Assembly (NCBI GenBank): GCA_030390025.1
Contig: CM059432.1
Coordinates: 83,144,001 to 83,208,000, forward strand
Direction of reading: 5' to 3'
From: Squalus acanthias
Lineage: Eukaryota
Length of the DNA stretch: 64,000 nucleotides
The notes under the pieces were generated by a model. It did not search any database. It worked only from the letters and a program-made list of their open reading frames with translations, and had not been told where the DNA came from. The translations under genes and the position numbers were made by a program. Shown here one piece after another: positions 9,801 through 63,870 of the stretch; the first letter of the stretch is position 1; every line of letters begins with the position of its first letter.

Positions 9801-10249
9801 ACAATCGAGCGAGCGGAGCGGAGGGGGAGGGACAGAGAGAGGAGATGGGGGAGGAGGCGAGGGCCGGGCCGGGCCACAACAACAGGTCAGCGCTCAGCCG
9901 CACACACGCTGCTGCTCAGCCGCCTTCATCACCATCTCTGCCATCTCTTTACAAGTTTGTAAACATTCCGCTCCCAGGACTGGTCAGAGCGCCGCGAAAC
10001 CACCTCACCTCACCTCACCTGGCGGCAAGGTGGCCGCTCTGATGGGCGATGTGTCCGAGTATTCGCCATCCTACACTTCCCTAAACAGAGTCCCCCCCCC
10101 CATTGCTGACACCATTCCTTTTAGTGTGGCCAAGGAGGCTATGTGCCTGTAACCGCAGCGAATGGGATGATCTGCAGAATTAAATGTTATGTATTAGAGC
10201 AGCCCCAAGCTGCTTCTCGTGTCTGTTGTCTCTTCCTGAAGTGTGTAAA

Positions 10250-14699: not shown

Positions 14700-14901
14700 T
14701 AACAGCATCTATCAGCAATAATGGACTTACCTGTACTTTTCTGAGGAGCAACACGTGCAAAGATTTAGGTTCACTAGGGAGGCAGTGACAGAGTTGGTGT
14801 CACGTGCTTCAAGGTGACTCCAGGCAAACTCCAAGGTGGGCACAGCATGGACATTAGGAACATCAATCCACCTGTGATCCACGGATGTGCTGTTTGCCAG
14901 A
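14700..14901 (+). pseudogene. Decayed Harbinger transposase, N-terminal part (continues at 26991)
   Basis: Reads TYLYFSEEQHVQRFRFTREAVTEL...VLFAR, aligning with SYIHMSEELCLRRLRFSKEVVTEL...ALFKR of the intact transposase. Confidence 0.7.
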
Positions 14902-26990: not shown

Positions 26991-27436
26991 CAACAAGCAG
27001 CTTCATCACTTTCTCTTTAGACAATCAACAACAGCACAGAGAGAGCCCTTGGGTTTTTTTCAAATGCTTGGATTCCTTAAAGTCCAGGGCATTATTGGTT
27101 ATACACATGGAGCTCTATGTACTCACACACACAATACTGAGACTTTCATGAACCAAATGGACTATATTTCTATCAACGTGCATGGTCTCTGTGATCAACT
27201 GCACAGAATCATGCATTTCAATGCCTGCTTCCCCGACAGCAGTCATGATGCCTTAATTTTATGGCAATCCACCATTCCCCACATATTTGCTCTGCAAAGG
27301 TTGCCTTCTAGGAAGCCAACACCACCGTGGCTCATGATGCTCTATGGCAGCCCCATAAAACTGCTGAGCACAGGTACAATGAGGTGTATGTATCCACCAG
27401 AGCCATTAACGAACACACCCAGTATGGTAAAGCAAA
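26991..27436 (+). pseudogene. Decayed Harbinger transposase, catalytic part
   Basis: GFLKVQGIIGYTH, SINVHGLCD, NACFPDSSHDALIL and RYNE motifs parallel the intact transposase. Confidence 0.8.
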
Positions 27437-29484: not shown

Positions 29485-30248
29485 GGGGGAAAAATTGGGT
29501 ATCGCCCATTTTGGGGCGCTAATATCGGCCGGGCGCAAAGTTTAGCGCCCGGCGCTAATTATCGCCTCCGACTGCAAAATTCACCTCTATTGTCCCTGGA
29601 GGTGATTTGAGCGCTAAATCAAGCATTACACATCTCTCTTAAGGCGTTAATATTGGGGAGTGAGGCGCTAACCTCAGAACGCTAATGAAGCTCAGGCGAT
29701 GTCAGTTACCACGGAAGCCAGACAGACTGGTGCCGTCCAGTTCTTAAAGGGGAGGGGCCATCTTGCTGGCCAGCCACACCCTGCTCATTGCAGCCTTGAA
29801 TCTCGGCCTGGAGAGACCTCTAAAGCAATTGTGTTAGAAGCACTAATGGATAGGCCCAGGGAAAGAGCTCGGTGCTTAGGAACCTCAAAAGTGGTGCTGA
29901 GGGCCAAAACTCCTTAGGACAGCGTTAAATCTTTCCAGACATGTCTCTCCCTCTCAACCTGCGTGTACCAAAAATTTTGCTGACAAGAAAAAGCAGGAAG
30001 CGCCCACCTTTAAATAGCGCTCCCCCAGCCCCTTCCCAACGTGAAAACGTTCCCCTCTACCTGTTATTCCTATCGGCAGGCGCCAAGCAGGGGGCGCGAC
30101 TCAATTTCCGGTCCGGGGTGTTGCACGCTTGCATGACGTCATGATCTGCGGACGCAGGAGATCGTGGCGGTAGTGTTTAGCGCTAGCGCAAAACGACAGG
30201 TCAATTTCGCGAGCAGTGCTAAAATCGCCACACTCCGAATTTTCCCCC
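29485..30248. mobile_element. Harbinger MITE related to the autonomous element at 43053-47436
   Basis: TIR GGGGGAAAA(A)TT, CAA TSD; both arms align with the termini of 43053-47436; no coding capacity. Confidence 0.88.
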
Positions 30249-31125: not shown

Positions 31126-31954
31126 TTGCTGGACTCTATGGGCATCCTGAAAAAATGGCAGTCTGTGACATTCACTGATGCCATTGCTTTCCCTCCAGTG
31201 CAGATAAAACCATCCCCAGAGGTGGTTGTTAGTGCCCTCAAAGCCAGTAATACCACCTCATCTATATTGTTGCACTGCCACTTGAGTCATTGTTGTCTCC
31301 AGCAGCTATGCTGTAACATCAAAGCAGCACAATGTACCATAAGTTACAGATATAGGGAAATCTTTTGTTATATTTACTTAGAGGCATCAGAATATGAGAA
31401 TGTAAATAGCTGAGATAAAATACACTTTGACTGGAAGAAACTGAGGGCTAAAAATTTGGTTGTGTGGCGCCTGTTGTTTGGTCGCTTCCGGTGCCGTTTT
31501 GGGTCGAAAATGGCGTCCAAGCAGCGCTTGCACACTTCTGGTGCGGGCCGCGCTGGACGCCATTTAGGTAAGGGTGCTAGCGTTGGCGCTGGGAGCATGC
31601 ACCAGAAGTATGCAGAGTACACAGATCATGATGTCAATCATGTAACACTGATTTGATGCCAGTGCTGCCATTTTCGACCTCAACGCTGGAGCTAATGCCC
31701 TCTCTTAACCTCCCACAATTAAACATGCGTTCAGCAGCAGGAAGGACCTTCCACCAGTGTTATTTAAAGGGATCATCACCTACTTACAGGTTAGTTGCTA
31801 ATTGATTTCTACTAGCTGTTGCCAAGTTTGTAGAAGTGTTTGGTGCTTTCTAGATTTCTTTAAAGTTGCCTAAAGTCTACAAGGAGTAGCGTGGCACATG
31901 CTCAAGGACTTGGTACTGACTTGCAAGGGGTCTGCTCAGACCAGTTGCTCCCTG

Positions 31955-33090
31955 ACACAGGTGCAGTAGTTTGTAACCCCCTTGGCCTGCAGCATGACGG
32001 GGAGAATGAGCAGAGGCGACACAGAGCAGGACAAGCTGCATGAAGAGGCAGGAGGAGGAGGAGGGGGAGGGCTCTCAGACGGAGGCCATATCCACCCAGG
32101 GTCTTCAGGGAGCAATTCTCCTACCTCAGCGACAAACAGTGCATGTGATGTCTCGGTTTTACTAAGGAGGTGATCACTAAAATCTGCCACCTGCTGCAGA
32201 CAGACCTGCAGCCTCAGTCCAGGGCGAGGACGGCATTGCCAGAGGCTGTGAAGGTGACCGTGGCCTTGAACTTCTTCGCGTCGGGCTCCTCCAGGCTGGA
32301 GCAGGCGACGTCTGTAACATCTCCCAGTTCACCGTCCACTCAAGGGAGGTGAGTGAGGCTCTGTATACAAAGAAAACTGAATACATTTCATTCTCTTTTG
32401 CCAGAGAGAAGCAGGCGGAGCGAACACACGGCTTTCAACAGGATAGCAGGCTTCCCATGGTGCAAGGTACCATTGACTGAACACATGTCGCTTTGTGGGC
32501 GCTGCATCTCAATTCAGAGATGTACCGCAACCAGAAGAGATTCCGCTCCCTCAATGTCCAGCTGGTGTGCGACCATACTCAGCGCATCATGCAGGTCCAT
32601 GCTCGGTATCCTGGCAGCAGTCATGATGCAGTCATTCTGCGGTAGTCCGCTGTACCATCAGCATTTGAGACACCACAACAAACCAGAGGGTGGCTACTGG
32701 GTGACAAGAGCTATCCGCTGACCACCTGGCTCATGACTCCACTGTGCAACCCACGCACACGTGGGCAGCATGCATACAATGAAAGCAATGCTGCCACACG
32801 GAATCTGATAGAGCAGACCATTGGCCTCCTTAAATGATGCTTCCGCTGCCTGGACCGCTCTGGAGGAGCCCTGCAGTACTTGCCAGAGTGCGTCTCAAGA
32901 TTCGCTGTGGTCTACTGCATGCTCCATAACCTCGCCATCATGAGGGCACAGCCCTTGGCACAAGGCATTCAGCAAACAGCTGAGGAGAAAGAGGAGGAGG
33001 AAGAGGAGGAGGAAGGGAGGAGGCAACTCAAACAGGCCCTTTCCGACCAGGCTGTCGATGATCGACTCATCTGACTGCGGTACCAGTGAA
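31955..33090 (+). pseudogene. Harbinger transposase pseudogene
   Basis: ICHLLQTDLQPQ, VKVTVALNFFASG, RIAGFP, CMLHNLA and acidic tail; frameshifts and stops. Confidence 0.88.
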
Positions 33091-33269
33091 CGCAACCCCA
33101 ATTCCCCCAATCAACAACAATCCCACATCTTACTTTCCCTCTGTTACTGACCATCACAGCGTCATCTTGGCCACAATGCTGAAATAAAAGCCACCACAAA
33201 ACAAACATTCCAAAACAATTTTATGAATCAAATCATTAAAATGCTTTATTCAAAAGTCAACCAATCACC

Positions 33270-36236
33270 CTTGTGCATTCCCTTAGTGCCTGTCTTCCAT
33301 GTGCATTTGCCTGACCTATTGCTCCTACGCAGTGCTACCCCAGTGGCTGCAGCATGGTTGGTGGAAGGCTGCTGACTTCCAATGGGGGAGACTACAGATG
33401 GCCTTGCAGGATGACCTCGAGCAGCTCTGGGTCTAGTAGGCCCGGCTTTGGACTGCACCACCTCATATGGGCAGCGGCAGTCTGGCCTGGCTGACTGACA
33501 GGCAACAGCAGGGGCACTAGCGGAGTGACATTGGTGGGAGGATGAATGTTGTCATCTTGAGAGAGGACAGCATGTTCGTCCTCCATGGAGCCACTGCCAC
33601 ACCCCTGGGGCGGTGCCTCAGCAATCCTAGTACTCTGTTGGACGACAGATTGCTGGACTGCTGTGACATCCTGCAAGCCCCTTTCAACACTGCTAACCGC
33701 AACCCTGATGGCAGCAGTCTGTGCTTGTGTGGCAGCAAGCTGAGCTTGCCTGGCTTCAGTCTGAGTTTCCATTGCAGCACTCAAATGTTGGGTGGCTTCT
33801 GCTTGTGCTGCAGTGGAAGCTGAGACTTTGGCCATCAGACGCTGCATGCAGCCCACAAGTGCGCTAATGGATCTTCCCACCTCTTCCACGCTGGAAAGGA
33901 TGGGCTCCACGCTCTGCGCAAAGCCCTGTGCAAGGTTGGAGCTGGACTCCTCCATGCTCCTTAACTTTGCCTTCAGGCTTTCTGGCAGGCCTGCCAATGC
34001 ACCAAGCATTTTGTTGTGGATACCCATCAGCTTTGTTCTGTAGTCCGCCCCATCAAAGGCCTCATCTGAGTCCTGTGCAGCAGAACTCATGTGCGACCAT
34101 TCCCTCCGGGGAGCTGGCACCTGCGCTACCCTTTCCACCTGTCCTGGCTGTAGCCTACTCGTGCCCGGTGACTCACCATGTGCAGATCCCACCTCTAAGC
34201 TACCCACTAAAGTCCGTGCAGTGCCAGTATCTGAGCTGGTGGCTGCGAGTGTCAGATGGAGTGACGGTGTTTCTTCTTCATCATCACTCTCCTCTTCCTC
34301 TTCCACCACCGCCTGGCCATTTGGATTTCTTGGGTCTCTGAAGTGAGAAAGGCACAAGGGGAGGGTTGTGGTAAGGGGAGGGAGTGGGGGGAGGGGTGCG
34401 GGGAAACAAGAGCTGCATGCTTACACCATGTGCAGCTTGTAACTCTGAAGAGATTGTGGGATGAGAGGGAAGTGGGATGTGAGAAAGAGGTATGAGCATA
34501 CCGTCATCTTCAATGGTTTCAGCGCCGCCGCTGGCCACAGCCACAGTCACAGCCGCTCCAACTATGCCGAGCACCGTCTGCTCAAGCGGGGTCAGGATAT
34601 GGAGGCATGCCTGTCCCCTTCTGGTTAGCTGCTGCTGCCTACGGTTGTGCGCCACCTTGTCCTGCAAGAGAGAGGGAAGTGTGTCAGTGAGTGTGGTTCA
34701 ATGTGTTTGACTGATGTGGCTGTCATGGTTGAATAGCTGGCAGTGTGTGCAAACTGAGAGATGTGGGTGTGAGGCTTGCAGCAGTGGTAAGTGTGTGAGG
34801 GTAAGATGAAGCCTATGAATCTGAGATAGGAGTCACGATTGAGAGAGATTGTTGGAAGGTGAGTGAGAAGGGTGTGGTGCATTGAGCAGTGTCTGAGGCT
34901 AGTGATGCAGTTTCTGGGATATGGCATTTGAAGATGATTTCATTGACCTTGACCACTCATGAGAGTTTTTTTTTAAATTCATTTATGGGATGTGGGCGTC
35001 GCTGGCAAGGCCAGCATTTATTGCCCATCCCTAATTGCCCTTGAGAAGGTGGTGGTGAGCCGCCTTCTTGAACCGCTGCAGTCCATGTGGTGAAGGTGCG
35101 CCCACAGTGCTGTTAGGTAGGGAGTTCCAGGATTTTGACCCAGCGACGATGAAGGATCGGCGATATACTTCTAAGTCAGGATGGTGTGTGACTTGGAGGA
35201 GAACTTGGAGGTGGTGGTGTTCCCATGCGCCTGCTGCCCTTGTCCTTCTAGGTGGAAGAGGTCGCAGGTTTGGGAGGTGCTGCCGAAGAAGCCTTGGCGA
35301 ATTGCTGCAGCGCATCTTGTAGATGGTACACACTGCAGCCACAGTACGCCGGTGGTGGAGGGAGTGAATGTTTAAGGTGGTGGATGGGGTACCAATCAAG
35401 CGGGCTGCTTTGTCCTGGATGGTGTTGAGCTTCTTGAGTGTTGTTGGAGCTGCACTCATGCAGGCAAGTGGAGAGTATTCCATCACACTCCTTACTTGTG
35501 CCTTGTAGATGGTAGAAAGGCTTTGGGGAGTCAGGAGGTGAGACACTCGCCACAGAATACCTAGCCTCTGACCTGTTCTTGTTGCCACAGTATTTGTGTG
35601 GCTGGTCCAGTTAAGTTTCTGGTCAATGGTGACCCCCCAGGATGTCGATGGTGGGAGATTCGGCGATGGTAATGCCGTTGAATGTCAAGGGGCGGTGGTT
35701 AGACTCTCGCTTGTTGGAGATAGTCATTGCCTGGCACTTGTGTGGCGCGAATGTTACCTGCCACTTATCAGCCCAAGCCTGAACGTGGTCCAGGTCTTGT
35801 TGCATGCGGGCATGGACTGCTTCATTATCTGAGGAGTTGTGAATGGCACTGAACACTGTGCAGTCATCAGCGAACATCCCCATTTCTGACTTTATGTTGG
35901 AGGGAAGGTCATTGATGAAGCAGCTGAAGATGGTTGGGCCTAGGACATGCCCTGAGGAACTCCTGCAGTGATGTCCTGGGGCTGTGATGATTGACCTTCA
36001 ACCACCACAACCACAAGAGGTCATTGAACTTCTTCCGGCACTGCATCCAGGTCTTCGGGGCAACGCTGTTGGCACTGACCTCCATGGCTATCTGCTCCCA
36101 CTGCCTTCGCCGTGTCTGTCTGGAGGGCCTCCTGCCCCCCCGCCTGTGGAAACAGGACCTCTCTCCTCCTCTCCACCTCCTGTACTAAGACTCCAGTGCT
36201 GCACCTGAGAACCCTCTCTCTGGCCTGTTGCGCCAT
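33270..36236 (-). pseudogene. Harbinger Myb/SANT gene, three-exon remnant interrupted by a LINE
   Basis: ATG at 36236 (MAQQARER..EVERRREVLFP), exon 2 DKVAHNRRQQQ (~34500-34662), exon 3 ORF 33392-34357; homologous to 43411-45447. Confidence 0.85.
34966..36014 (-). mobile_element. YKAQVRSVMEY-family LINE, 5'-truncated, inserted in Myb exon 1
   Basis: MFADD and RT C-terminal motifs, A-rich tail; splits the KKFNDL/VVK coding sequence. Confidence 0.92.
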
Positions 36237-36259
36237 TGCTGAATGCTTCCCAGTTGAAA

Positions 36260-38895
36260 GTAGAATCAGTATGGGTGGAGATAAGGAATAACAAGGGGCA
36301 GAAAACACTGGTAGGAGTAGTATATAGGCCCCCTAACAGTAGCTATACCGTTGGACAGAATATTAATCAAGAAATAGTACGAGCTTGCAACAAAGTTAAT
36401 GTAATAATCTTGGGGGACTTTAATCTTCATATAGACTGGACAAATCAAATTGGCAAAGGTATTCTGGAGGACAAGTTCATGGAATGCATTCGGGACAGTT
36501 TCCTGAAACAATATGTCATGGAACCAACCAGGGAACAGGCTATTTTAGATCTTGTATTGTGTAATGAGACAGGGTTAATTCGCAATCTCATAGTAAAGGA
36601 TCCTCTGGGGCAGAGTGATCATAATATGATAGAATTTCACATTAATTTTGAGAGTGACTTGCCTAAGTCCAAAACTAGAGTCTTAAACTCAAATAAGCCA
36701 ATTACATAGGTATGAGGGGCAAGTTGGCTAAGGTAGATTGGAAAAATAGATTAAAAGGTATGTTGGTAGATAAGCAGTGGTTAGCATTTCAAGAAATATT
36801 TCATAATTCTCAATAAAAATACATTCCATTGAAAACAAAAACTCCATGGGAAAAGTGATCCAATCGTGGCTAACTAAAGAAGTTAAGGATAGCAGTAGAT
36901 TGAAAGAAGAAGCTTATAATGTTGCAAAGAACAATAGTAAGCCTGAGGATTGGGAGAGTTTCAGAAACCAGCAAAAGTTGACCAAAAAATTGATAAAAAG
37001 GGAAAAAATAGAATGAGAGAAAACTAGCAAGAAATATAAAAGCAGATTGTAAGAGTTTCTACAAGTATGTAAAAAGGAAAAGAGTAGCAAAAGTAAACGT
37101 TGGTCCCTTAGAGGCTGAGACAGGAGAAATTATTATGGGGAATAAGGAAATGGCAGAAACGTTAAACAAATCTTTTGTATCTGTCTTCACAGTAGAAGAC
37201 ACAAAAAGCGTACCAAAAATGGTGGGGAACCAAGGGTCTAATGAGGGTGAGGAACTTAACGTAATTAATATAAGTAGAGAAAAAGTACTAGAGAAACTAA
37301 TGGGACTAAAAGCTGACAAATCCCCTGGACCTGATGGCCTACATCCTAGGGTTCTAAAAGATGTGGCTGAATAGATAGTGGATGCATTGGTTTTGATCTT
37401 CCAAAATACCCTAGATTCTGGAATGGTCCCAGCGGATTGGAAGGTCGCAAATGTAACACCGCTATTCAAGAAAGGAGGGAGAGAAAAAACAGGGAACTAC
37501 AGGCCAGTTAGCCTGACATCAGTCATCGGGAAAATGCTGGAATCCATTGTTAAGGAAGTGGTATCAGGGCACTTAGAAAATCATAACATGATTAAACAGG
37601 GTCAACATGGTTTTATGAAAGGGAAATCGTGTTTGACAAATTTATTAGAGTTTTTTGAGGATGTAACTAGCAAGGTAGATAAAGGGGAACCAGTGGATGT
37701 AGTATATTTGGATTTCCAAAAGGCATTCGATAAGGTGCCACATAACAGGTTATTGCACAAGATTAGGGCTCATGGGATTGGGGGTAATATAGTAGCATGG
37801 ATAGAGGATTGGTTAACGGACAGAAAACAGAGAGTAGGGATAAACGGATCTTTTTCAGGTTGGCAGGCTGTAACTAGTGGGGTGCCGCAAGGATCAGTGT
37901 TGGGGCCTCAGCTATTTACAATCTATATTAATGACCTGGATGAAGGGACCAAGTGTAATATATCCAAGTTTGCTGATGATACAAAGCTAGGTGGGACAGT
38001 AAGCTGTGAGGAGAACAAAGAGTTTGCAAAGGGATATAGATAGACTAAGTGAGTGGGCAGTAAGGTGGCAGATGGAGTATAATGTAGGGAAATGTGAGGT
38101 TATTCACTTTGGTAGGAAGAATAGAAAAACAGAATATTTTTTAAATGGTGAGAAACTTTCAAATGTTGGTGTTCAGAGAGATTTGGGTGTCCTCGTGCAA
38201 GAAACACAGAAAGCTAGCATACAGGTACAGCAAGCAATAAGGAAGGCAAATGGCATGTTGGCCTTTATTGCAAGGGGGTTGGAGTATAAGAGTATGGAAG
38301 TCTTGCTACAATTGTACAGGGCCTTGGTGAGACCACACCTGGAGTACTGTGCACAGTTTTGGTCTCCTTATCTAAGGAAGGATATACTTGCCTTGGAGGC
38401 GGTGCAACGAAGGTTCACTAGATTGATTCCTGGGATGAGAGGGCTGTCCTATGATGAGAGATTGTGTAGAATGGGCCTATACTCTCTGGAGTTTCGAAGA
38501 ATGAGAGGGGATCTCATTGAAACATACAATATTCTGAAGGGGATTGACAGGGTAGATGCTGAGAGGTTGTTTCCCCTGGCTGGAGTGTCTAGAACTAGGG
38601 GGCATAGTCTCAGGATAAGGGGTAGGCCGTTTAAGACTGAGATGAGGAGGAATTTCTTCACTCAGAGGGTTGTGAATCTTTGGAATTCTCTGCCCCAGAG
38701 GGCTGTGAATGCTGAGTCTTTGAGTATATTCAAGGCTGAGATAGATAGATTTTTGGACACTAGGGGAATCAAGGGATATGGGGATCGGGCGGGAAAGTGG
38801 AGTTGAGGTCGATGATCAGCCATGATCGCATTGAATGGCGGAGCAGGCTCGAGGGGCCGTATGGCCTACTCCTGCTCTTATTTCTTATGTTCTTA
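36260..38895 (+). mobile_element. 5'-truncated CR1 LINE (EN-RT) with few disruptions
   Basis: ORFs 36236-36709, 37135-38043 and 38006-38806; ttcttatgttcttat tail; TGAAA duplicated at 36255-59 and 38896-900. Confidence 0.95.
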
Positions 38896-39884
38896 TGAAA
38901 CTGCCTTCTGGAATGACTTCCAGCACCTGGTCTCGTCAAACTGCACCTCCCCCTTAAGAGGTGCAGCTTGGCTTTAAGAACGGAAAGCTAGCTTTAATTG
39001 GTGCTAGCCTCGCCCGAACTTGGGCCTATGCTGAGCGTGCAGCCACTCAGCAGCGTGTTCAGTGCTGGGCTGCACGCCACTATCATTTAAATTAGCAGAT
39101 AGCACCAAGTATGCGTGCTGCCTGCATTACTTTGAACGGGCACAGGTTAATCGCGCATCGTGATCCCCGTGCCCATTTTCGGGGGCTATCAAATTTTTAG
39201 CCCTGAATATTTAAATAAAACCAATGTTTGTAAAGGATTTGAATTAACCTATTTCCTTTTAATTATAGCTTCCTAATGTGTTGTACAGATGGCTTTTTAG
39301 TGTGCCAAACTTTTGAGAAGAGGAATCCCTGAGAATATGTTTTTAAATACCATATACTTTATTTATAATACTCTTAAGAAGACTGGTAATTATCAACTAC
39401 TCGTACGTGAAGTCAGGCAATGTGAAAAGCTTCCTCATTATTGATGGATAATGGGGAAATGGTTGGACATGAATTGCTTTGATATTAGGGTATATTTTTC
39501 AGCCAGTGGGATTGGTCTCACTGCCACAGAAGAAGCGAGCAAGTGCCAGGATATTGGGCACAGAATTCCTTTCTCCAGATCTTTGGCCTGTAAAAATCCA
39601 GCAGATCACCCTTTAAAAAAACACTTGCTGAAATCAGGGATCCAGCAAAGGAGATTCCCCACCCCATATGCCAAAATGGGTGTTGAAGGCCAGGCAAGTG
39701 GCCTTTCAGCAAGTGACTTTTGAAAGGGTGACCTGCTGGATTTTTCACAGGAGTAATTTTGACTGTGGAATTAACAATGTGTTTTTGACAGCTGGATTTG
39801 TGATGATTTTGTTATATTTTTGTGTGTTGTATTTTTTGGGCAGGATTTTTGGTAGCAAGCTATTCCTCTCTTTTTTAGTTTTTG

Positions 39885-40129: not shown

Positions 40130-40465
40130 GAGGTTTGCTTCCACTGCCCTTGATAAGGAGGCTGCTCTTACCCAGGCCTGTGTGCAAACCCAGTTGACAC
40201 CTACCTGGAAATGTCCAAGGAGCACTTTTCAGAGGCTCTGCTTCACCAGGGAGGTTGTAGTGGAGTGCCATCTGCTGGAATCTGACCTGCAGGTAACCTG
40301 CACGACAGCGATGGCACAGCCAGCCACTGTCAAGTTCTCCACAGTCCTAAACCTTTATGTCTCAGAGACTCATTTCAAACTAAAGACATCAGCAACATCT
40401 ATCAGTCCACAGTGGAAGATGCATCAAGTATTAATTGCCAGAACAAACAAAATCACTTTCCATTG
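40130..40465 (+). pseudogene. Decayed Harbinger transposase N-terminal fragment
   Basis: QRLCFTREVVVECHLLESDLQ resembles RRLRFSKEVVTELCHLLQPDLQ. Confidence 0.65.
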
Positions 40466-42017: not shown

Positions 42018-43410
42018 CTGAGAACAGAACTTGGGAAAATAAAATGGACAACAATATTGGCAAACAATTATGTAGAATAGCAATGGGAAACATTTAAAAG
42101 GGTGTTCAACAGAGTCCAGGAAAAATATATTCCGCTAAAAAACAAGAACAAGCTAAACACTAATAAGACACCATGGATGAATAAAGACATAAGGGAAAAA
42201 TTGAGGGTAAGGAAAGAGACATACACTGAGTACATGGACAGCAGGGGAGAGCATAACACTCGAATACGAAGAGATTAGGAGAGAATTCAAAAGAACAATT
42301 AGGAAGGCAAAGGGGAACTATGAAATTAAATTATCAAGGAACATAAAACAAAATAGTAAAAGATTCTACAGGCACATGAATAAAAAAAGGAAAGTTGGGA
42401 TAGGAATAGGGTCACTAAGGGACGGTCAGGATAAAATCACAGGCAGTGATAGTGAAATGGCAGAAATATTAAATTACTTTTCTTCAGTATTTACCAGGGA
42501 GACAGATCAGGTGGACATGATATAATGGCATTTAAAATAAAAAGGAGAAATATTAAATAAACTAATCAAACTCAAAGAGTGTAAACCCCCTGGTCCGGAT
42601 GGATTACATCCGTGCATTTTAAAAGAATCTAGGGAAGAGATAGCAGAGGCACTATTACACATATTTAATAATTCATTAGAAAAAGGTGTAGTGCCAGAGG
42701 ACTGGTGGATCGCTAACGTAATACCTGTATTTAAGAAGGGAGATAGAACATGTCCAGGGAACTATAGACCAGTCAGCTGAACATCGGTGGTCGGAAAAAT
42801 AATGGAATCCCTACTAAAGGAAAAAAATAGAACAGCTAGAAACCAAAAATATAATAATGAATAGTCAGCATGGATTTCAAAAGGGAAAGTCATAGAGTCA
42901 TATGGGCACAGAAGGAGGCCATTCGGCCCATCGAGTCCGTGCCGGCTCTCTGTAGAGCAATCCAGTCAGACCCATTCTGCCGCTCTATCCCCGTAGCCCT
43001 GCAAGTTTATTTCCCTCAAATGCCTATCCAGTCTCCCCTTGAAAACATTGAGGGGGAAAAATTAGGTCGCGTCCCATTTGGGGCGCAAATATCGTCTGGA
43101 CGCAAATATTAGCGCCTGGCGCTAATTATCGCCACTGACTGGAAACTTCACTTTTACCGCCCCGGGAGGTGAGTGGAGCGCTAAATCAGGCGCTGCACAC
43201 CTGTCTTAAGGCGCAAAGGCCGAGCAGTGAGGCGCTAACTCAGCGCGCGAGCGCAGCGCAGGTGCTGCCAGTTAGCGAGGGAACACAGACACACTGGCGC
43301 CGGCCACTTCTTAAAGCGGGGGGGGCCAACTTGCTCCCCAGCCACACCCTGCTCATTGCAGCCTTAAATCTCGGCCTGGAGAGACCTGTGAATCCATTTT
43401 GCTGCCAAGG

Positions 43411-43647
43411 ATGGAGAGGGTGAGAGAACGAGCTCATCGCTTCACCGAGCGGGCCTTGGATGCTCTGGTTGGCGCGGTGGAGCGCAGAAGATGTATACTC
43501 TTCCCTGAGAGTGGCAGGAGGCCTTTGCCATGCGAGTACAGAAGAGTGTGGAGGGAGGTGGCTCAGAGCGTCTCCTCCAGGAGCATGGTGCCCAGGACCC
43601 ATACTCAATGCCGCAAAAAGTTCAACGACCTCACTCGGGTCGTCAGG
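43411..43647 (+). CDS. Harbinger Myb/SANT-like DNA-binding protein, exon 1
   Basis: MERVRERAHRFTERALDALV...WREVAQSV...QCRKKFNDL; donor AGG|GTGAGT, phase 0. Confidence 0.88.
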
Positions 43648-43790
43648 GTGAGTGGCTTTTTCTCAATACCTCTCCATCCCTCCATCTCAACCTCACTCTA
43701 TGGCCAGAGGGTCTTAAAACCCAATGCACAACACTCATCCAACACCTATGGCCCTTTCATGAAACACACACACACACATTCCACACTTTG

Positions 43791-44114
43791 CATACAGTAA
43801 GGGCTATTCACCTATGGGAGGCACATCAGGCAAGACCATGGCTGCATACAGTAAGGGCTATTCACCTATGGGAGGCACATCAGGCAAGACCATGGCTGTA
43901 GACAGTAAGGGCTATTCACCTATGGGAGGCACATCAGGCAAGACCATGGCTGTAGACAGTAAGGGCTATTCACCTATGTGAGGCACATCAGGCAAGACCA
44001 TGGCTGTAGACAGTAAGGGCTATTCACCTATGGGAGGCACATCAGGCAAGACCATGGCTGCATACAGTAAGGGCTATTCACCTATGGGAGGCACATCAGG
44101 CAAGACCATGGCTG
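43791..44114 (+). repeat. Intronic tandem repeat, 54-bp unit x6
   Basis: catacagtaagggctattcacctatgggaggcacatcaggcaagaccatggctg repeated at 54-bp spacing. Confidence 0.95.
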
Positions 44115-44148
44115 TATATTTACTCAGATGCTGTCCTTTTTCTTACAG

Positions 44149-44311
44149 GCCAAGCTTGCGCATAATCGGAGACAGCAGCAACGGACAGGTGGAGGGCGGC
44201 CTCAGCTGCAACCCCTCAGCGATCTTGAGGAGCGCGTCCACAGGATTGTGGCAAGCCGGGTGATCGGTCCCGTCGCCACTGGAGACGCCGACCCCGTTCT
44301 GGACAGCAATG
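44149..44311 (+). CDS. Harbinger Myb/SANT-like protein, exon 2
   Basis: Acceptor tttcttacag|, AKLAHNRRQQQRTGGG motif, donor G|GTAAGG, phase 1. Confidence 0.88.
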
Positions 44312-44470
44312 GTAAGGTCATCACCTTTTTGTCCTCTGTCCTTCCACTTGTCCCTCACAACACCAGCCTTTGACACTTTCAATCCAACTTGCTAACTCGC
44401 TGCACTTATTCCTCCCTTACTGCCACCCTGTCCTCACGCTAAAGCCACTCTTGTACCTCCCTGCTTTCAG

Positions 44471-45447
44471 ATGGTGATTCACCAGCTGAGGAGACGGGCC
44501 CTGAAGCAGCCAGTGGGAGTGAAGCTGCAGCCGAGGAGGAAGAGGAAGCCGGAGCATCAGTGCCACCCTCTCCCGAGGAAGCCCATGCCCACACTGGGAA
44601 CACGCCTTCCCTGGAGGGGAGCAGGGGGGAAGGGTCTGATGAGGGTGAAGCTCCAGGACCCAGCGGGCTGCAGCAACGCCATGGGGGTAGGGAAGAACGG
44701 GGGCCTTCTCCCCAGAGGGAGAGTAGGCCAGAGACTCCTACTGCAATGGACGCAGAGGAGGAGCGGCTGATCGCAGAAATGAACACCCAGGCGGTGGGCA
44801 TGCACACTGAGCTCATGGGTGCAGTGGGAAGGGTGCCCGAATGCATTGAGTCACTGGCAAGGAGTGTGGAGCACTTCGCTGTAGCACAGGCGGATGCCAC
44901 ACTAACGCTTAGTGCTGCAATTCAGTCACTGGCTGCCGTGATCCCATCTCTGACTGCTCTCATGCAGACTCAGATTGAGGCCACGCGAGCACAGACTGCT
45001 GCCAACCTCGATGGTTCGTTCACATGTCCCCGGGGCTGTCACCGCGCCGCAGCAGGCCAGCAATCTGTTCTCCAGCAGATTGCTCCGGATGCTGAAGTGC
45101 TGCCCCGTGGGAGTGCCAGTGTGTCGGGCGAGCAGGGAGTTGCTGTCCTCTCTCACGATGACAGCATTCCTGCTGCCAACACTGTCACTTCTCCACTGCA
45201 CTTGCCACCGCCTGTAGGACAGACTGCTGCCGCCCATGCAGAGTTGGTGCAGTCTGCAGCCGGGCCCTCCAGGCCCAGAACTGGTCGAGGCCGTCCTTCA
45301 GGGGCATCTGCAGTGTCCGGGTCTGACGAGCAGCAGCCTTCCACCAGCCTTGCTGCAGCCACTGAGGTCCCATTACGGAGGAGCAGTAGGGTTAGAAGGG
45401 GGGAAGTGCGCAAGGGAAGGAGATCACCCTTGAAGGGCAAAAAGTAG
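44471..45447 (+). CDS. Harbinger Myb/SANT-like protein, exon 3 (spliced product 458 aa)
   Basis: Acceptor ctgctttcag|; in frame with ORF 44560-45447; acidic region, coiled-coil-like segment and basic C-terminus. Confidence 0.85.
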
Positions 45448-45759
45448 GAGGTGTGACAAAATGCTGGTCATTTTTTTATTAAAGGTCGAGGTTCATGGTC
45501 CAACTTTTGTTTAGTGTTTTGGACATTATCTCCAGGTTGTGAGAACCAGTTATGTTATTGACTGTTTTTTTGTGTTTATTTCTATGAGTTTGTCATGAGG
45601 AATTGACACACACAGAGTTTGTAAAATAAATAAGTTTCTGTATTCAAAATATACATGGTTGGTGGTTGGAATTATTGGTGCCTTGGCCGGCTTAGGGGTT
45701 GCGTGCTGGGTTCATTGATGTTGTTAGCAATGGCAGAAGCCATTTCCACAGCAGGGGCC

Positions 45760-46926
45760 CTAGAAGCGGCTTGCTATTAGCCGTTGACGGACGGCCCTTG
45801 CTGTTTCACCATTGTGGGCCGCCCTCCCACCTTGGTGCTGCTGATGATCATCCTCCTCGTCCTCTTCCTCCTCTTCCTCCTCCTCCTCCTCCTCTGGTGG
45901 TGCTCCAAGGCCTGGTGGCATTGGCTGGGTCCTGAGGATTGCCATGTTATGCAACATGCAGCACACAACTACGAAGTTGGATACTCGCTCAGGCGAATAC
46001 TGCAGGGCTCCTCCAGAATGGTCGAGACAGCGGAACCGTTGCTTCAACACGCCGATTGTGCGCTCAATTATGTTCCTGGTAGCTTGATGGCTCTCATTGT
46101 ACCGCAGCTCAGCAGGGGTGTTGGGCGTACGGAGCAGTGTCATCAGCCAGGTGCTCAATGCATACCCCTTGTCCCCGAGAAGCCAACCAACTGGCTGATG
46201 CGGTGCCTCGAAAAGTTCTGCCACAGTAGTCTGGCGCAGGATAAAAGCATCGTGGCAGCTGCCAGGATAGTGGGCATTGACAGCGAGTATCAGCTGTCTG
46301 TGGTCACAGACCAACTGAACATTCAAGGAATGGAACCCCTTTCTGTTCCGGAATTCCTCGGCATTCTCATGCGGAGCACGCAAAGCCACATGCGTGCAGT
46401 CAATGGCGCCCTGCACCATGGGGAAGCCCGCTATCCTCGCAAAGCCCAGAGCGCGGTCACGCTGCTTGTCTGGGGTCATGGGGAAAGAGATGAACTCTCG
46501 TCTCCTTTTAAAGAGGGCATTTGTGACCTGCCGGATGCAGCAATGCACCGCGAACTGGGAGATATTGGCGAGGTCCCCAGCAGCAGCTTGAAATGAGCCA
46601 GTAGCGTAGAAGTTGAGAGCCACTGTGACCTTCACTGCCACCGACAGAGACGTCCTGGACCTCAGTTGAGGCTGCAGATCTGGCTGCAGCAGGTGGCAGA
46701 GCTCAGTGACCACCTCCTTGCTGAATCGCAGCCTTCGCAAACACAGCTCCTCAGACATATGAATGTAGGAGAGCTGTTCACGATATACCCTGGGAGGGTA
46801 AGCTCTCCTGTACATACGCCTGTTGGCCCTCCTCCGTCTGGCCATCATTGCCACTCTCTCTCTGCGTCTCTGTGTCCTCCGATTCAGCTGGAGCAGGACG
46901 ACGCCCCCAATCAGTGCAGCCCCCAT
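45760..46926 (-). CDS. PIF/Harbinger DDE transposase (HARBI1-like family), 388 aa
   Basis: Open frame from MGAALIGG; GAIDCTH, NRKGFHSLNVQ, PGSCHD, GDKGY, IERTIGVLKQRF and CCMLHN motifs; catalytic D-D-E intact. Confidence 0.95.
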   Translation of the reverse strand: MGAALIGGVVLLQLNRRTQRRRERVAMMARRRRANRRMYRRAYPPRVYREQLSYIHMSEELCLRRLRFSKEVVTELCHLLQPDLQPQLRSRTSLSVAVKVTVALNFYATGSFQAAAGDLANISQFAVHCCIRQVTNALFKRRREFISFPMTPDKQRDRALGFARIAGFPMVQGAIDCTHVALRAPHENAEEFRNRKGFHSLNVQLVCDHRQLILAVNAHYPGSCHDAFILRQTTVAELFEAPHQPVGWLLGDKGYALSTWLMTLLRTPNTPAELRYNESHQATRNIIERTIGVLKQRFRCLDHSGGALQYSPERVSNFVVVCCMLHNMAILRTQPMPPGLGAPPEEEEEEEEEEEDEEDDHQQHQGGRAAHNGETARAVRQRLIASRF

Positions 46927-49900
46927 AGTCTCTTTGCAAGCAAAGTAATGAAGGACAGCAACTGAAGTACTAGCGAAGTTAGGATCAGTAGGCAAAACTA
47001 CCTCACAAAGCGTTGAGTCAATGCAGAAGTCTCTGTTTCTCTCTCTCCGAATCTCTCTCTCTCTCTCAGAAAGAGTGGTGCAAAAATGTCCACCACAGAA
47101 AAAGACAGGAAGAGGCCCCCTTTAAATAGCGCCCCCCCCAGCCCCACAGCGATTGATAGCGTTCCAGTCTTCCGGTCGTTGGATGCGCCAGGCGGTAAGG
47201 CAGGGGGCGCCACTCAATTTCCGCTCTGGGGCGCCACAAGGGCGTTGCACCATGGAATGACGTCACAATCTGCGCGCGCAGGTGGTCGCAGCGGTAAGGT
47301 TTAGCGCCGCCGCACAATCTCTTGTTAAGTTACCGAGCGGCGCAAACATCGCTGCGCCCGGGCGTTAGCGGCTTTGCGCCCCATTAGCGCCCTCTTAAGG
47401 CGCTAACGGGAGGCGGAACCAACTGAATTTTTACCCGAGTGTCTCCGCTTCCACCACTTCCGTCGGCAGCGAGTTCCAGGTCCTCACCACTTGCTGCGTA
47501 CATTTTTTTTCCTCACATCCCCCCTGTATCTCTTGCCCAAAACCTTAAATCTGTGTCCCCTAGTCCTTGTACCATCAACTAGTGGGAACAGCCTTTCCCC
47601 TTCTAGCCTATCCAAACCCGTCATAATCTTGTACACTTCTATCAAATCACCCCTCAACCTCCTTTGCTCTAATGAAAACAAATCCAGCTTCTCCAACCTG
47701 TCCTTGTAGCTAAGATTCCCCCATCCCCGGAACCATTCTGGTATATCTCCTCTGCACCCTTTCAAGTGCCTTCACGTCCTTCCTAAAGTGTGGTGACCAG
47801 AACTAGACGCAATACTCCAGTTGTGGCCTAACCAGCGCTTTATAAAGGTTCAGCATAACTTCTCTACTTTTGTACTCAATACCTCTATTTATGAAGCCCA
47901 AGATCCCATATGCTTTGCTAACCACTCTCTCAATATGTCCTGCCACCTTCAGGGACCTATGCACATTAACTCCCAGGTCCCTCTGTCCCTGCACACTCTT
48001 TAAAACTGTGCCATTAAGTGCATATTGCCTCTCCCTGTTCCTTCTGCCAAAATGCATCACCTCACACTTCTCTATTAAATTCCATCTGCCACTTGTCTGC
48101 CCATTCTGCTAGCCTTTCTATGTCCTGTTGCAGTCGATTGGTATCATCCTCAGTTTGCCACATCCCCAAGTTTGGTGTCATCAGCAAATTTTGAAATTCT
48201 ACTCTGTATTTCAATATCCAGGTCATTTATACATATCAAAAAAAGCAGTGGCCCCAGCACTGACCCTTGGGGAACACCACTGTCTACCATCCTCCAGTCT
48301 GAAAAACAGCCATTTACCACAACTCACTGTTTTCTGTCCTTAAGCCAATTCCTTATCCAAGCTGCCACTGATCCACCAATTCCATGAGCCTCAATTTTGT
48401 TAACCAGCCTTCTATGTGGTACTTTGTCAAACGCCTTCCGAAAATCCATGTAGACAACATCCATTGCATTCCCTTCATCAATCCTTCCTGTTACTTCATC
48501 AAAAAATTCAATTAGATTAGTCAAACACAATCTGCCTTTTACAAATCCATGTTGGCTCTCCTTAATTAGCTTAAACCTCTCCAAGCGCCTGTTAATTTTT
48601 CCCTTGATTATTGTTTCTAAAACTTTATCCACCACTGATGTTAAACTGACCGGCCTGTAGTTACTAGGATTGTCCTTGCACCTTTTCTTGAACAATGGTG
48701 TCATATTTGCCACTTTCCAATCCTCAGGCACCTCCCCCTCATCTAGGGAAGATTGGAAAATTATGGCAAGCCCTTCCGCTATCTCCTCCCCCAATTCCCT
48801 TAGCAACCTGGGATGCAAGCCATCTGGACCAGGCGACTTATCCACTCTAAGCATACCCAGTCTTTCTAGTACACCCTGTCTATCAATTTTCACCCCTTCC
48901 ATTGCTTCTACCGTTTCCACTTTTACCGATATTTTGTCAGCATCCACCTCCATAGTAAACACCAATACAAAGTACTCATTGAGTATTCCAGCCTTGCCCT
49001 GCACCTCTAAGCATATATCACCTTCTTTGTCCCTAATAGGCCCCACCCCGCCTCTTACTACCCGCTTACTGTTTACATGCAGGTAGTTACAAGTTTTGCT
49101 TGACCAACGTTATTGAATTCTTTGAAGAGGTAACAGAGAGTAGACAAGGGTAATGTAGTAGATGTAAGTTATCTAGATTTCCAAAAGGCTTTCGATAAAG
49201 GTACCACATAATAGACTAACGAATAAGATCAGAGAATGCGGAGTCAGGGGACAAGCAGAAGAATGGATAGCTAGCTGGCTTCAAGACAGAAAGCAGAGAG
49301 TAGGGGTAAAGGGTAGCTATTCAGAGTGGCAGAAGGTGGAAAGTGGGGTCCCACAAGATCAGCGCTGGCCTGGGACCACTGTTGTTCACAATTTATATTA
49401 ATGATTTAGACCTTGGATGACACCAAATTGGCAGGGTGGATAGTCAATACTGAGGAGGACTGCAACAAATTACAGGAAGACATTAATAAGCTTGCAGAAT
49501 GGGCATATAATTGGCAAATGAAATTCAACACAGATAAATGTGAGGTATTACATTTTGTCAAGAAAAATAAGGAGGTCACATATTACTTGGAAAATAAGAA
49601 TCTAAATGGGGCAAAGGAATCTCAGAGTACAAATACACAAATCACTAAAATTAGCGACACAGGTTAATAAGGCCATAAAAAAAGCAAATCAAGCACTGGG
49701 GTTTATTTCTAGATGGATAGAATTGAAAAGTGGAGAAGTTATGCTAAACTTGTATCAAACCTTGGTTAGACCACACTTGGAGTACTGTGTACAATTCTGG
49801 TCGCCATATTATAAAAAGGATGTAGAGGCACTGGAGAGGGTGCAAAAATGATTTACAAGGATGATACCAAAAATGCGAGGTTATATCCATCAGGAAAGGA

Positions 49901-50944
49901 AGAACAGGCTGGGTCTCTTTTCTCTTGAAAAGAGAAGGCTGAGGGGTGATCTAATAAAGGTCTTTAAATTTATGAAAGGTTTTTTTGTAGAGTAGAGCAA
50001 AACTAGAGGCCCTCAATCTAAGATAGTCACCAAGAAATCAAATAGCGAATTCAGAATAAACTTCTTCACCCAGAGAGTGGTGAGAATGTGGAACTCGCTA
50101 CAACAGGGAGTGGTTGAAGCAAATAGCATAGATGTATTTAAGGGGAGGCTAGCTAAGCACATGAGGGAGAAGGGAATAGAAGGTTATGCAGATAGAGTTA
50201 GATGAGGGAAGTTGGGAGGAGGCTCGAGTGGAGCATAAACACCAGCATGAATTGTTTGGGCCGAATGCCATTTCTCTGCTGTATATCTTATGTAATCCTA
50301 TGTCATCCAATTCAGCAAAGGGTGACGGAGGAGTTCTGAAGGATGAGTGGCACCAGCAGCCACAGGAAGCAATGGGAAAACAGCAAAGCAGAGATCTTTT
50401 AGTAGCAAGGGAGCAGAATCCAGAGCAGGAACGGAAATCAGCAGGAACAGATCAGAGGTAACAGTGTAGAGTGAAAAATTCCCAGCAAAGGAGGGGATAA
50501 CTGAGTCCGCAGAAATAGACCAGGTACCGGAATAGAGGCAGATAACAGAGAATACAGTCTCAGTAGAAAGCGGCGAAGGTGGAGGTCACAATAAAGCCCA
50601 GATGTCAGCAGAGAAATGGACTTCGGCCCAAGAGTAGATGGATTTCTGTTCAGGACTCAACACAGCAGCAGAGTAAAGCTGAGAAGCCAGGAGTGCATTG
50701 AAGTACAGTCCTGAAGTTCAGCAGGTAACAGCATTAGGTGGGGTGAGGGGGGTGGGCACTGTAGGCTGGAACAGGTTACCTTAAACTTGAAGCGATTGAA
50801 TGGCAGAACAGTCACAACAGCTGAGGCAAACAATGTAGTCCAGCAGAGTAGTGCAGTCCTGATGGCAGAGGAGTTCAGAAGTCCAAGAAAGCAAACATGA
50901 GCAGAGTTCCAGGTATTGAAAAGAACACAGAACAAACTGGGCCA

Positions 50945-61086: not shown

Positions 61087-63127
61087 CTGGAATTAATAAT
61101 AGAATTATATATGTGGTTAAATTTCTTCAGCTTCAATTTTATTAGCTATATTATATATATATATATTTATTTTGTTTATTAAAAACAAAAGTCTGTCTTA
61201 TTATGGACATGTCATGATATGCCTTAGTATATTAATTTATACAATCTGCGACTAAAAGTTTTAAAACAATTCTCCAATTTTCTTCCCTCCTGCCCATAAA
61301 AAGCGTTGTTCCTGCTGGAGTACAGTTCAACAGGCAGGCCTCCTTCATGTCTGAGCCCCTATAGTGAGCCTATTCCACTGCAGAAGGCATCACAGTTGAG
61401 TTCGACCCTGCTCTCACATGGTATATACACATACTCCCCAGCAATGATCACTGGATAACAGCCAGGAGCAGGAACTCTGGCTTATTTTTCCTTTCCATAG
61501 TCCATAGCACCAAGGTCAATTATAGCTCCCCAATTGCTGCTCAGCTAACTTGGTACAGATCGAGGATTGTACCTGGGACTTCTTGGCTTAGTACTATACC
61601 ACTTGGTACCTTTACCAATGGGCCATTGAGGGATGCGTAATTGAAAATAGTTCTAAACCAATATAAAACCAGACAGGTAGTTTGGTGGCATTCTCTGTTG
61701 GGAAGCAGGCTTATACTCTTGATTCCTCAAAATTGTAAAGAGGGCACAACTCAGCAGGTAGAATGGCAAAAAAGCCCATTAATAAGGAATTGGTACAGAT
61801 GATGAAGAGGAGGAAAATAGAAAAATTAACAGTGTTTCAGTTCCTACCCACCCCCATCCAACCTCACAAAGGCAGTGACAGCCGCTATCTGAGCTCCTAT
61901 TTTGAGAGACTGGCAAAATCGATGCCGGGAATGGCTGGTTGAACGACCCGAGCTAGCCCACAGGGCATTGAGGGGGCTGTGCCCAATTTTGCAGGATTAG
62001 CTCATTTTAAAATAATTAGTATGTGCTCCTAGCACAGCTTTGGCCTTGCACTGACAGCTAACTTAAATGGAGAAATTCCAAAACTCAGCCAGCAGCTCAA
62101 ATTTAAGGGAATGTGCATACTTAAGGTAAATGTTGTTTCAGCCTTTGTAAAGATTTAAAATGGATTTGAAATATTTGTCACCCTTTGCCAAGGCTCGGGA
62201 GTGGGCGAGAGGAAGTGGTGCCAGGCAGAAATGAAGTGACAGAAATTCCTCTCGAAGCATAAAACTGAGTCTATTGTTAAGTGACCACGCGGGCAACATT
62301 CTTACTGGTTTGATAGCTAGCAAAGTGGATGTGCTGCATGAGGTGGGTGTGAGGGGCCCTACCCTGTTTGGCACTTCAGGGCACCCTCCCAGAGAACATC
62401 AGTGGATATCGTCGGTCAGATGGCAGCCAGACTCAACGGTGTGTACTATACATGGGTCAGCAATACAGCAACCTGTACTCCCAGAAACCCCAGCACTCAG
62501 CAAATGTTCTGTGCCATCAAGCTGATGCCTCTTTTCCAGAGGGAAAGTGATGAATGTGTTGTCTCTTGAAAACAAGGCTTCCATCACTTGCTTGATGCAT
62601 CTGGGAGAATGACTGACTGATTTAGTGCAAGTCACTGGAGATAGCTTGGAAGGATCCGGTGCCATGGAAATGTAATTCACGCTCACAAGAGCTGTTTCTA
62701 AGGTGTAAGTTGTCTGCAGGTAGCTTCCAAGAGGCAGCATAACTATATGGCAGCACTCATATCAAGTAAAGGCACCAAAAATAGGTCTCTTCTGTCTAGG
62801 CCAGTAAATGCAGGTATTGGACTAAGGACAGGTGTATACATAAGTACTATCACAACATTTATTGTGCTCACCACGGAATTACTGTTTATCGAAGATTTTC
62901 TGTAAATGTTTCTCCCTGCCTCTCCAAGAGGTATTGACACTGGCTATGATATAGTTACACAGTCATAGGCAGCCATCCAGTACCTTGTGCAACTAGTGGT
63001 TCTTCATGTGTATGCCTAAAAGAGAGTGTTGGTTGGCTATTTATGCACAGAGGACATTAGAACACAAGCCGGATTCTGTTCTCATCCAGCAGTCACACTT
63101 GCATTTTGCAGCAGGGGCCACTGGATA

Positions 63128-63870
63128 GTTTTTTTTATTCGTTTATGGGATGTGGGCGTCGCTAGCAAGGCCAGCATTTACTGCCCATCCCTAATTGCCC
63201 TCGAGAAGGTGGTGGTGAGCCGCCTTCTTGAACTGCTGCAGTCCATGTGGTGAAGGTTCTCCCCCAGTGCTGTTAGGGAGGGAGTTCCAGGATTTTGACC
63301 TAGCGACGATGAAGGATCGGCGATATACTTCTAAGTCAGGATGATGTGTGACTTGGAGGGGAACTTGGAGGTGGTAGTGTTCCCATGCGCCTGCTGCCCT
63401 TGTCCTTTTAGGTGGAAGAGATCGCAGGTTTGGGAGGTGCTGCCAAAGAAGCCTTGGCGAGTTGCTGCAGTGCATCTTGCAGATGGTACACACTGCAGCC
63501 ACGGTATGCCGGTGGTGGAGGGAGTGAATGTTTAAGGTGGTGGATGGGGTGCCAATCAAACGTGCTGCTTTGTCCTGGATGGTGTCGAGCTTCTTGAGTG
63601 TTGTTGGAGCTGCACTCATCCAGGCAAGTGGAGATTATTCCATCACACTCCTTACTTGTGCCTTGTAGATGGTGGAAAGGCTTTGGGGAGTCAGGAGGTG
63701 AGACACTCGCCGCAGAATACCCAGCCTCTGACCTGCTCTTGTTGCCACAGTATTTATGTGGCTGGTCCAGTTAAGTTTCTGGTCAATGGTGACCCCCAGG
63801 ATGTTGATGGTGGGGGATTCGGCGATGGTAATGCTGTTGAATGTCAAGGGGAGGTGGTTAGACTCTCCCT
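63128..63870 (-). mobile_element. YKAQVRSVMEY-family LINE, 5'-truncated, in a TRAM1 intron
   Basis: ORFs 63635-63898 and 63191-63619 encode the RT C-terminus; A-rich tail at ~63130. Confidence 0.92.

Follow-up and report, generated by a model that had tools for sequence, protein, structure and literature searches.

Can a natural Harbinger transposon that has kept both of its genes open still move in a shark? We asked this of one element in a 64,000-nucleotide stretch of the Squalus acanthias genome (GenBank assembly GCA_030390025.1, contig CM059432.1, positions 83,144,001–83,208,000; this stretch is the window, and its own coordinates are used throughout). A sequence-only reading had described an intact two-gene Harbinger at 43053..47436, young and possibly mobile. 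The element is present at full length, with preferred limits 43052..47436 (4,385 bp; no strand is assigned to it as a whole), and it fits the PIF/Harbinger superfamily on every feature tested. On balance, we favour the view that this copy, from a Harbinger family abundant in the shark, could still encode both proteins but is probably dormant, and that its right junction is damaged. In the zebrafish element Harbinger3_DR, the Myb protein binds the transposon ends and brings about nuclear import of the transposase, and both proteins are needed (PMC2836001, PMC9392472; these and all literature statements below reflect the accessible parts of the sources).

Two open, convergent genes at the centre of a nest

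Analysis of Pfam domains, open reading frames (ORFs) and splice joins showed two convergent genes, both with open frames. The transposase ORF lies on the minus strand (45760..46926) and runs from its first ATG at 46926 to the stop at 45760 without an internal stop. As the sequence-only reading had claimed, its 388-aa product is a D-D-E transposase: it matches DDE_Tnp_4 (E 5.9e-39) and carries the triad as D176, D252 and E288. Conservation was scored over 120 listed matches, 109 of which cover the triad positions. Conservation reaches 90% or more at 31 columns, and the window transposase agrees at every one of them; the full triad, present here, is kept in 54 of the 109. The predicted structure (predicted local distance difference test score, pLDDT, 87.9) has an RNase H-like fold, with D176 in a strand, D252 directly past a strand and E288 in a helix. 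Its top fold matches are the piggyBac transposase (Z 9.8, root-mean-square deviation 4.9, 235 aligned) and the Tn5 transposase (Z 9.2). No Harbinger structure is among the 50 fold matches listed, Foldseek gave no match at E ≤ 0.001, and a PDB sequence search with the protein returned low-complexity matches only. Metagenome scans found 0 stretches with the 20-nt end pattern, and of the 622 pattern matches to the transposase query, 0 were confirmed. Antisense to the transposase there is a 271-codon open frame (45781-46596, plus strand), probably a by-product of codon use.

The best 73 of the 120 listed matches are all chondrichthyan gene models, with a top local identity of 67%. We built a midpoint-rooted tree of 42 proteins, comprising the window transposase and 41 of the 120 matches hand-picked for length and spread. 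The window transposase falls within the chondrichthyan set (19 of the 42 rows, support 100/100). Chondrichthyan models in the same clade bear the automatic label 'putative nuclease HARBI1' without element annotation, and in many of them the protein begins with MG where the ORF has its first ATG. The nearest tree row, P0001 from Pristiophorus japonicus, is 64% identical over 387 columns and, unlike the window transposase, lacks the catalytic E.

The element sits near the 3′ end of a long interspersed nuclear element (LINE) on the minus strand (42894..49086, limits approximate), which is 5′-truncated and has a decayed reverse transcriptase (RT) with an RVT_1 match. This host LINE in turn splits an outer LINE on the plus strand (42040..50290, limits approximate) at 42893/49087, between the RT residues KGKS and CLTN (KGKS|CLTN). 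We take both LINEs to be of CR1 type. Since the Harbinger interrupts a LINE that itself splits another, it is the innermost layer of the nest, as had been proposed; self-BLAST revealed no further insert in it besides a tandem array described below. We searched 23 sequencing runs, 18 of which contain 50% or more of the words sampled, and compared four (X1, X8, X14 and X15) in detail. All four contain the joint 43049->47437, the restored empty site that the sequence-only reading had predicted, with 34 contigs in X1. The joint skips 4,387 nt, that is 4,384 + 3, as the 3-bp duplication of PIF/Harbinger elements entails, with the identity of the triplet left to be inferred. The simplest source of these empty-site contigs is paralogous copies of the LINE that lack the insert.

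The Myb/SANT gene lies on the plus strand and is predicted to have three exons. Exon 1 (43411..43647, 79 codons) matches Myb_DNA-bind_5 (E 5.8e-09), exon 2 spans 44149..44311, and exon 3 (44471..45447, to the stop codon) has no Pfam match. Intron 1 (43648..44148, phase 0) and intron 2 (44312..44470, phase 1) both have GT-AG borders, and the predicted splicing gives a continuous frame of 458 aa with a stop only at its end, so that the model first proposed holds as a prediction. Intron 1 contains the tandem array (43792-44118; 54 bp × 6.1, 97% matches), and one X15 and one X8 contig both end at 43818. Between the genes, the convergent 3′ region (45448..45759, no strand assigned) has AATAAA on the plus strand at 45625 and on the minus strand at 45575 and 45475, which are candidate poly(A) signals.

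The window also contains a decayed Harbinger of a sister family, older and likewise with two genes (31445..39203, opposite orientation, about 70% identity). It has both introns at the same positions and phases, and its last exon is homologous to exon 3. Junction 1 reads VVK|DKVAHNRRQQQ in the window copy and VVR|AKLAHNRRQQQ in the older one, and the phase-1 GT donor of intron 2 follows DDG and DSN, respectively. However, in a global alignment the introns are 51–59% identical and exon 2 is 58% identical; because intron identity is not below that of exon 2, the older element supports the splice model by position only. The protein model P0008 aligns across junction 1 without a gap. Searches for Myb partners found 1 match to exon 1 among 144 candidates in longer proteins and 0 matches to exon 3 among 8000 scored proteins.

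We found no splice joint among the 15 examined of the 111 joints seen in the four runs, two of which (X8 and X14) are guessed to be RNA. An X14 contig (43605-43760) crosses donor 1 unspliced. Both guessed-RNA runs cover the whole Harbinger, with depth peaking on the CR1 flanks, a pattern consistent with DNA, or with read-through of dispersed copies. At acceptor 2, an X8 contig ends at 44499 and an X14 contig starts at 44470, as a spliced path with 31-letter words would also give. These ends were rejected as splice evidence, because a variant at 44500 would produce them too and the depth of X14 drops further downstream. The X8 contig that spans intron 2 was not counted as bridging, as it has fewer than 31 exon letters on either side. 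In run X14 (organism B), the bin with intron 2 is about four times deeper than most of exon 3.

Ends, target site and subterminal motifs

The left terminal inverted repeat (TIR), GGGGGAAAAATT (43052..43063, plus strand), is identical at 12 of 12 nucleotides to the left end of a related miniature inverted-repeat transposable element (MITE) that starts at 29485. The right TIR, GGGTAAAAATT (47426..47436, minus strand), is one base short of the 12-nt register found in four of the five other ends compared. In the register of a 43053 start, the two TIRs match at 10 of 11 and 11 of 14 positions. TIRs are thus present, and common to this Harbinger and two neighbouring elements, but they are short and imperfect and so weaker than had been claimed.

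The sequence-only reading took GAG (43050-43052) as the target duplication, and GAG does occur on both sides of the element. Yet two readings give one and the same empty site: GAG with a start at 43053, or TGA (43049..43051, plus strand; flanks AAACAT|TGA|GTGTCT) with a start at 43052 and a T lost on the right. We scored nine registers of the site, together with two neighbouring elements that have unambiguous duplications, against two patterns: the target published for zebrafish Harbinger3_DR, AAACACCWGGTCTTT (12 flank positions; PMC3016246), and A-N-N-Y|nnn|R-N-N-T (four positions). The TGA register agrees at 9/12 and 4/4 positions. The GAG register agrees at 3/12, which lies in the median range of the background, and at 1/4. 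Both neighbours, the MITE (CAA) and the older Harbinger (TGA), score 8/12 and 4/4. Across the window, 0.09% of sites reach at least 9/12, 0.65% at least 8/12, and 1.9% reach 4/4. The ATT register, with 8/12 flanks, was rejected, as it would need loss of the entire right duplication and a start other than GGG.

We are highly confident, from these flanks, that the duplication is TGA and not GAG. On this reading, the element would start at 43052 and the right junction would have lost either T alone or CT including the element's terminal base, leaving GA as a putative remnant of the right duplication (47437..47438, plus strand). An apparent GAG duplication then arises automatically from loss of the T, as G is both the next base of the target and the first base of the element. 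The alternative, that the limits 43053-47436 are right, with symmetrical 11-nt TIRs, an off-consensus GAG and an undamaged junction, requires no mutation; it puts GAG on both sides, fits the empty site and keeps both ends in one 11-nt register. We nevertheless regard it as highly doubtful. Its flanks fit far worse than those one base to the left, where the fit resembles that of both neighbours, and the left end from 43052 begins with five G, as does that of the MITE. The right limit, 47436, is therefore kept, whereas the flank fit moves the start to 43052 and makes the GAG duplication probably wrong. A seemingly perfect 3-bp duplication can come from a one-base register artefact, and this calls for caution.

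The motif GCGC(A/C/T)AA occurs 11 times in 664 subterminal bases, with six sites on the left (43064..43410, plus strand) and five on the right (47131..47425, minus strand), and once in 3,720 interior bases. A TATA-like TTAAAG is located at 43311 and a TATA-like TTTAAA near 47125, just inward of the right subterminal region. The pattern was picked from the data, and its control was the best one-wildcard 7-mer in 500 shuffles: 13 such sites were observed against a shuffle maximum of 9. The MITE ends have nine motif sites. Since the older Harbinger has only one in about 620 end bases, the motif is family-specific, and the array may represent Myb-binding sites. CpG observed/expected ratios are 0.83 and 1.09 in the two subterminal regions versus 0.39 in the window, and every motif site retains its CpG. 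The CpG richness already remarked on is thus real. As a mark of youth it fails: the array persists in the MITE, which is 20–30% diverged and old. CpG richness probably stems largely from the motif array and is more likely functional than a sign of recent insertion.

Size and age of the family and the question of activity

The figures for X1 come from 55% of that run and from a 5.7-kb stretch that includes the CR1 flanks; contigs drop rare variants. On this stretch, X1 has 69,248 contigs, of which 15,390 are at least 99% identical, 26,142 are 95–99% identical and 27,716 are 90–95% identical. Summed depth cannot be converted to copy number; the family is highly repeated, probably with hundreds of copies or more. 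We therefore see a dispersed, multi-copy family with non-autonomous derivatives, although the MITE, a 70–80% relative, is only a candidate for mobilization by the family's proteins. Run X15 looks as if it covered repeats alone, at low depth, and the words are nearly absent from a second run of organism D. Eight organism codes occur among the 18 strong runs. We do not take them as a sign of horizontal transfer, since close relatives, or shark DNA that was carried over, would account for them equally well.

Long pieces from X15 differ from the window copy by 1.1% (six of six pieces). The seven long pieces from X14 differ by 1.4%, or 0.7% without one piece at 7%, and the seven from X8 by 2.7%, or 1.2% without two pieces at about 7%. 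Pieces at about 7% were taken as other sub-families and excluded, which places the window copy about 0.7–1.2% from the family majority. In simulations of neutral decay, both frames stayed open with a probability of 0.07–0.18 at 1% divergence, 0.003–0.025 at 2% and about 0 at 5%. Because chance alone gives 0.07–0.18 at 1% in a family of many copies, the open frames are no sign of activity. With the epaulette-shark mutation rate of 7e-10 per generation (upper bound 14.1e-10; PMC10587355), a distance of 0.7–1.2% corresponds to 5–17 million generations, if the differences post-date insertion. The copy is thus young in sequence terms, as had been proposed, but on that condition not in generations.

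We examined 40 of 284 rows of variant sites, 14 of them coding. None of these coding rows affects a catalytic residue. Five of them are near-fixed differences from the family; four are synonymous and the fifth gives C41 for R in the Myb domain. At eight sites in the Harbinger, the window's own letter makes up 0–0.8% of X1 depth, which likewise indicates a family of many copies.

Several points weigh against a long-dormant copy. The chance of at least four of five differences being synonymous is 0.017–0.036, in a small sample, and such an excess hints that the differences come from a selected, replicating sub-lineage, so that the insertion may be much younger than 1% suggests. The mutation rate is taken from another species (PMC10587355). 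Among the X1 contigs, 15,390 of 69,248 are at least 99% alike, even if these are short pieces, flanks included. The junction loss is deduced from a single sequence; an assembly error in a run of C at the right junction is possible; and if the loss was that of the duplication's T alone, the element itself is whole.

Taken together, these points give some room to a different account, in which the copy belongs to a minor sub-lineage that moved until very recently or still moves. Its differences would go back to a master copy under selection, it would retain both proteins and its mobility, and either the duplication's T alone was lost or the loss is an assembly error. We consider this possible, though unlikely. 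It would be consistent with the open frames, the intact triad and the full agreement at strongly conserved columns, the synonymous differences, the CpG kept at every motif site and the coverage of the entire element by the guessed-RNA runs. Four of the eight transposase-overlapping X14 and X8 pieces examined differ from the window by only 0–1 letter in 149–167 bp, whereas the other four differ by 9–13 letters. Set against this account are the scarcity of the window's letters in X1, because of which no large sister group is visible, the lack of a splice joint among those examined together with the unspliced contig over donor 1, and a guessed-RNA depth that is highest on the CR1 flanks. The right end also lies one base below the usual register, and the sole near-fixed amino-acid change falls within the Myb domain.

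We thus return to the dormant, coding-competent copy. As a full-length member of an abundant, comparatively young cartilaginous-fish family, it would work like Harbinger3_DR, the two-protein mechanism being taken from the literature. Two convergent genes would be transcribed inwards from the element ends; the spliced Myb/SANT protein would bind the GCGC(A/C/T)AA arrays beside the short TIRs and recruit the DDE transposase; and the transposase would cut at the GGG termini. Insertion would occur into the centre of a palindromic site like AAACAC-nnn-GTCTTT with duplication of 3 bp, and the same two proteins might move MITEs in trans. The window copy most likely entered the CR1 3′ region at AAACAT|TGA|GTGTCT millions of generations ago. 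Later it would have lost 1–2 bases at the right junction and gained a few substitutions, with both frames remaining open largely by chance.

Kinship with known Harbingers and with neighbouring elements

Harbinger3_DR, also named NuwaI-2_DRer, is 4,204 bp long, with a 12-bp TIR, a CWG duplication and DDE_Tnp_4 plus Myb_DNA-bind_5 proteins (PMC4482050, Han et al. 2015). The shark element resembles it in length (4,385 versus 4,204 bp), TIR (11–12 versus 12 bp), GGG start, both Pfam domains and target flanks (9/12 like AAACAC...GTCTTT), by features and not by sequence. It differs in its triplet (TGA, or GAG, with TGA and CAA in the neighbours, versus CWG) and in the length of the predicted Myb protein (458 versus 221 aa); moreover, it is a natural copy, whereas Harbinger3_DR was reconstructed. 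In terms of the groups of Han et al. 2015, the GGG TIR start, the DDE_Tnp_4 and Myb/SANT pair and the size of about 4.4 kb agree with NuwaI, but the CWG duplication is absent. Nor does the element show the TWA duplication of the strict PIF/Harbinger group, as 0 of the 3 window sites are TAA or TTA. NuwaII families, for example the painted-turtle Harbingers (PMC4482050), share a TNA-type duplication, two ORFs, a length of 4–5 kb and a GG start. However, the best Pfam match here is Myb_DNA-bind_5 and that of the turtle NuwaII families is Myb_DNA-bind_4. The NuwaII target is C|TNA|G; the only three sites available for comparison in the window read T|TGA|G here and C|TGA|A and C|CAA|A at the neighbours.

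Intact natural vertebrate Harbingers have been published, which weakens an argument from novelty. Harbinger-Snek has 269 fully intact natural copies in the sea krait Laticauda colubrina, and RNA reads lie over both genes of an intact copy in the other sea krait (PMC8437027). Like the shark family, it is an abundant vertebrate two-gene family with intact natural copies and non-autonomous derivatives, its activity being suspected and not demonstrated. It differs in its host, in the horizontal transfer argued for it and in the RNA reads over both coding regions. Furthermore, 11 NuwaI and 22 NuwaII families have been called potentially active (PMC4482050), and a naturally mobile animal Harbinger is reported in a nematode (PMC13668399). 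A survey detected no Harbinger in the elephant shark and urged testing of other species (PMC9179366), and papers on the whale shark and the grey reef shark list Harbingers as repeat classes only. Our literature search, which took in few subscription papers, no supplements of the shark papers and neither Repbase nor Dfam, listed no paper with elasmobranch Harbinger families as its main subject and none that demonstrates present-day mobility of a vertebrate Harbinger.

The window contains many generations of the superfamily. The MITE (29485..30248, plus strand; 764 bp, target duplication CAA) is 80% similar to the Harbinger at the left end and 71% in the right subterminal region, and is an internal-deletion derivative of a sister family. 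Both motif arrays survive in it, as do the two TATA-like boxes and the first Myb codons. The older Harbinger has a perfect 14-nt TIR and is of full length, with both genes broken and two LINE inserts: a fragment at ~34961-35711 within its Myb exon 1, 94% like 63124-63870, and an interrupting CR1-type element at ~36250-38900. In tblastn searches, decayed Harbinger Myb or transposase fragments also appeared at 22011-22217, 27037-27432, 40227-40424, 62516-62758 and 14725-14868. Elsewhere, a tandem array of 25 bp × 44 (16667-17763) is inserted in a CR1-type reading frame, and a CpG-island-like stretch at 9001-10150 (GC 0.61, CpG observed/expected 0.91) is possibly a host promoter or first exon.

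Five groups of transposase models have short branches and good support across shark and ray genera: P0026/P0028/P0069, P0006/P0014/P0015/P0016/P0017/P0021, P0011/P0012, P0004/P0005 and P0037/P0041. In four of the five, the aligned members lack the catalytic E. To judge from the proteins, these groups look like elasmobranch-specific domesticated genes; PMC9392472, in its accessible part, names only HARBI1 as transposase-derived. The presence of several such cross-species groups among the matches, the HARBI1 labels of the relatives and the synonymous excess would suit a domesticated, host-serving HARBI1/NAIF1-like pair in the window too, an idea that we find scarcely credible. Genes of that type are single copy, lack TIRs and a duplication and are orthologous across species; the pair studied here belongs to a highly repeated family with TIRs and MITE relatives, it interrupts a LINE whose empty site occurs in all four runs, and its transposase has no short-branch partner from another species in the tree, where the nearest row is only 64% identical.

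Harbingers of cartilaginous fishes have barely been described. This family is easy to assay, since it offers two open genes, a candidate binding motif that can be named and a target consensus that can be tested; the window copy, its activity unproven, would be a good protein donor for such an assay. The family could add a vertebrate two-protein transposon with a target preference, which would matter more if activity were shown. The strongest form of the idea is that this copy or a near-identical sister is naturally functional, belonging to a sub-lineage that is selected and still transposing in the shark. It would stand for an elasmobranch clade in which palindromic target flanks of the Harbinger3_DR type are still recognized but the triplet is relaxed (TGA and CAA versus CWG), and it would use GCGC(A/C/T)AA as its Myb-binding code. 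We judge this distinctly unlikely; if true, it would give a vertebrate two-component system that works without reconstruction and whose targeting is guided by sequence.

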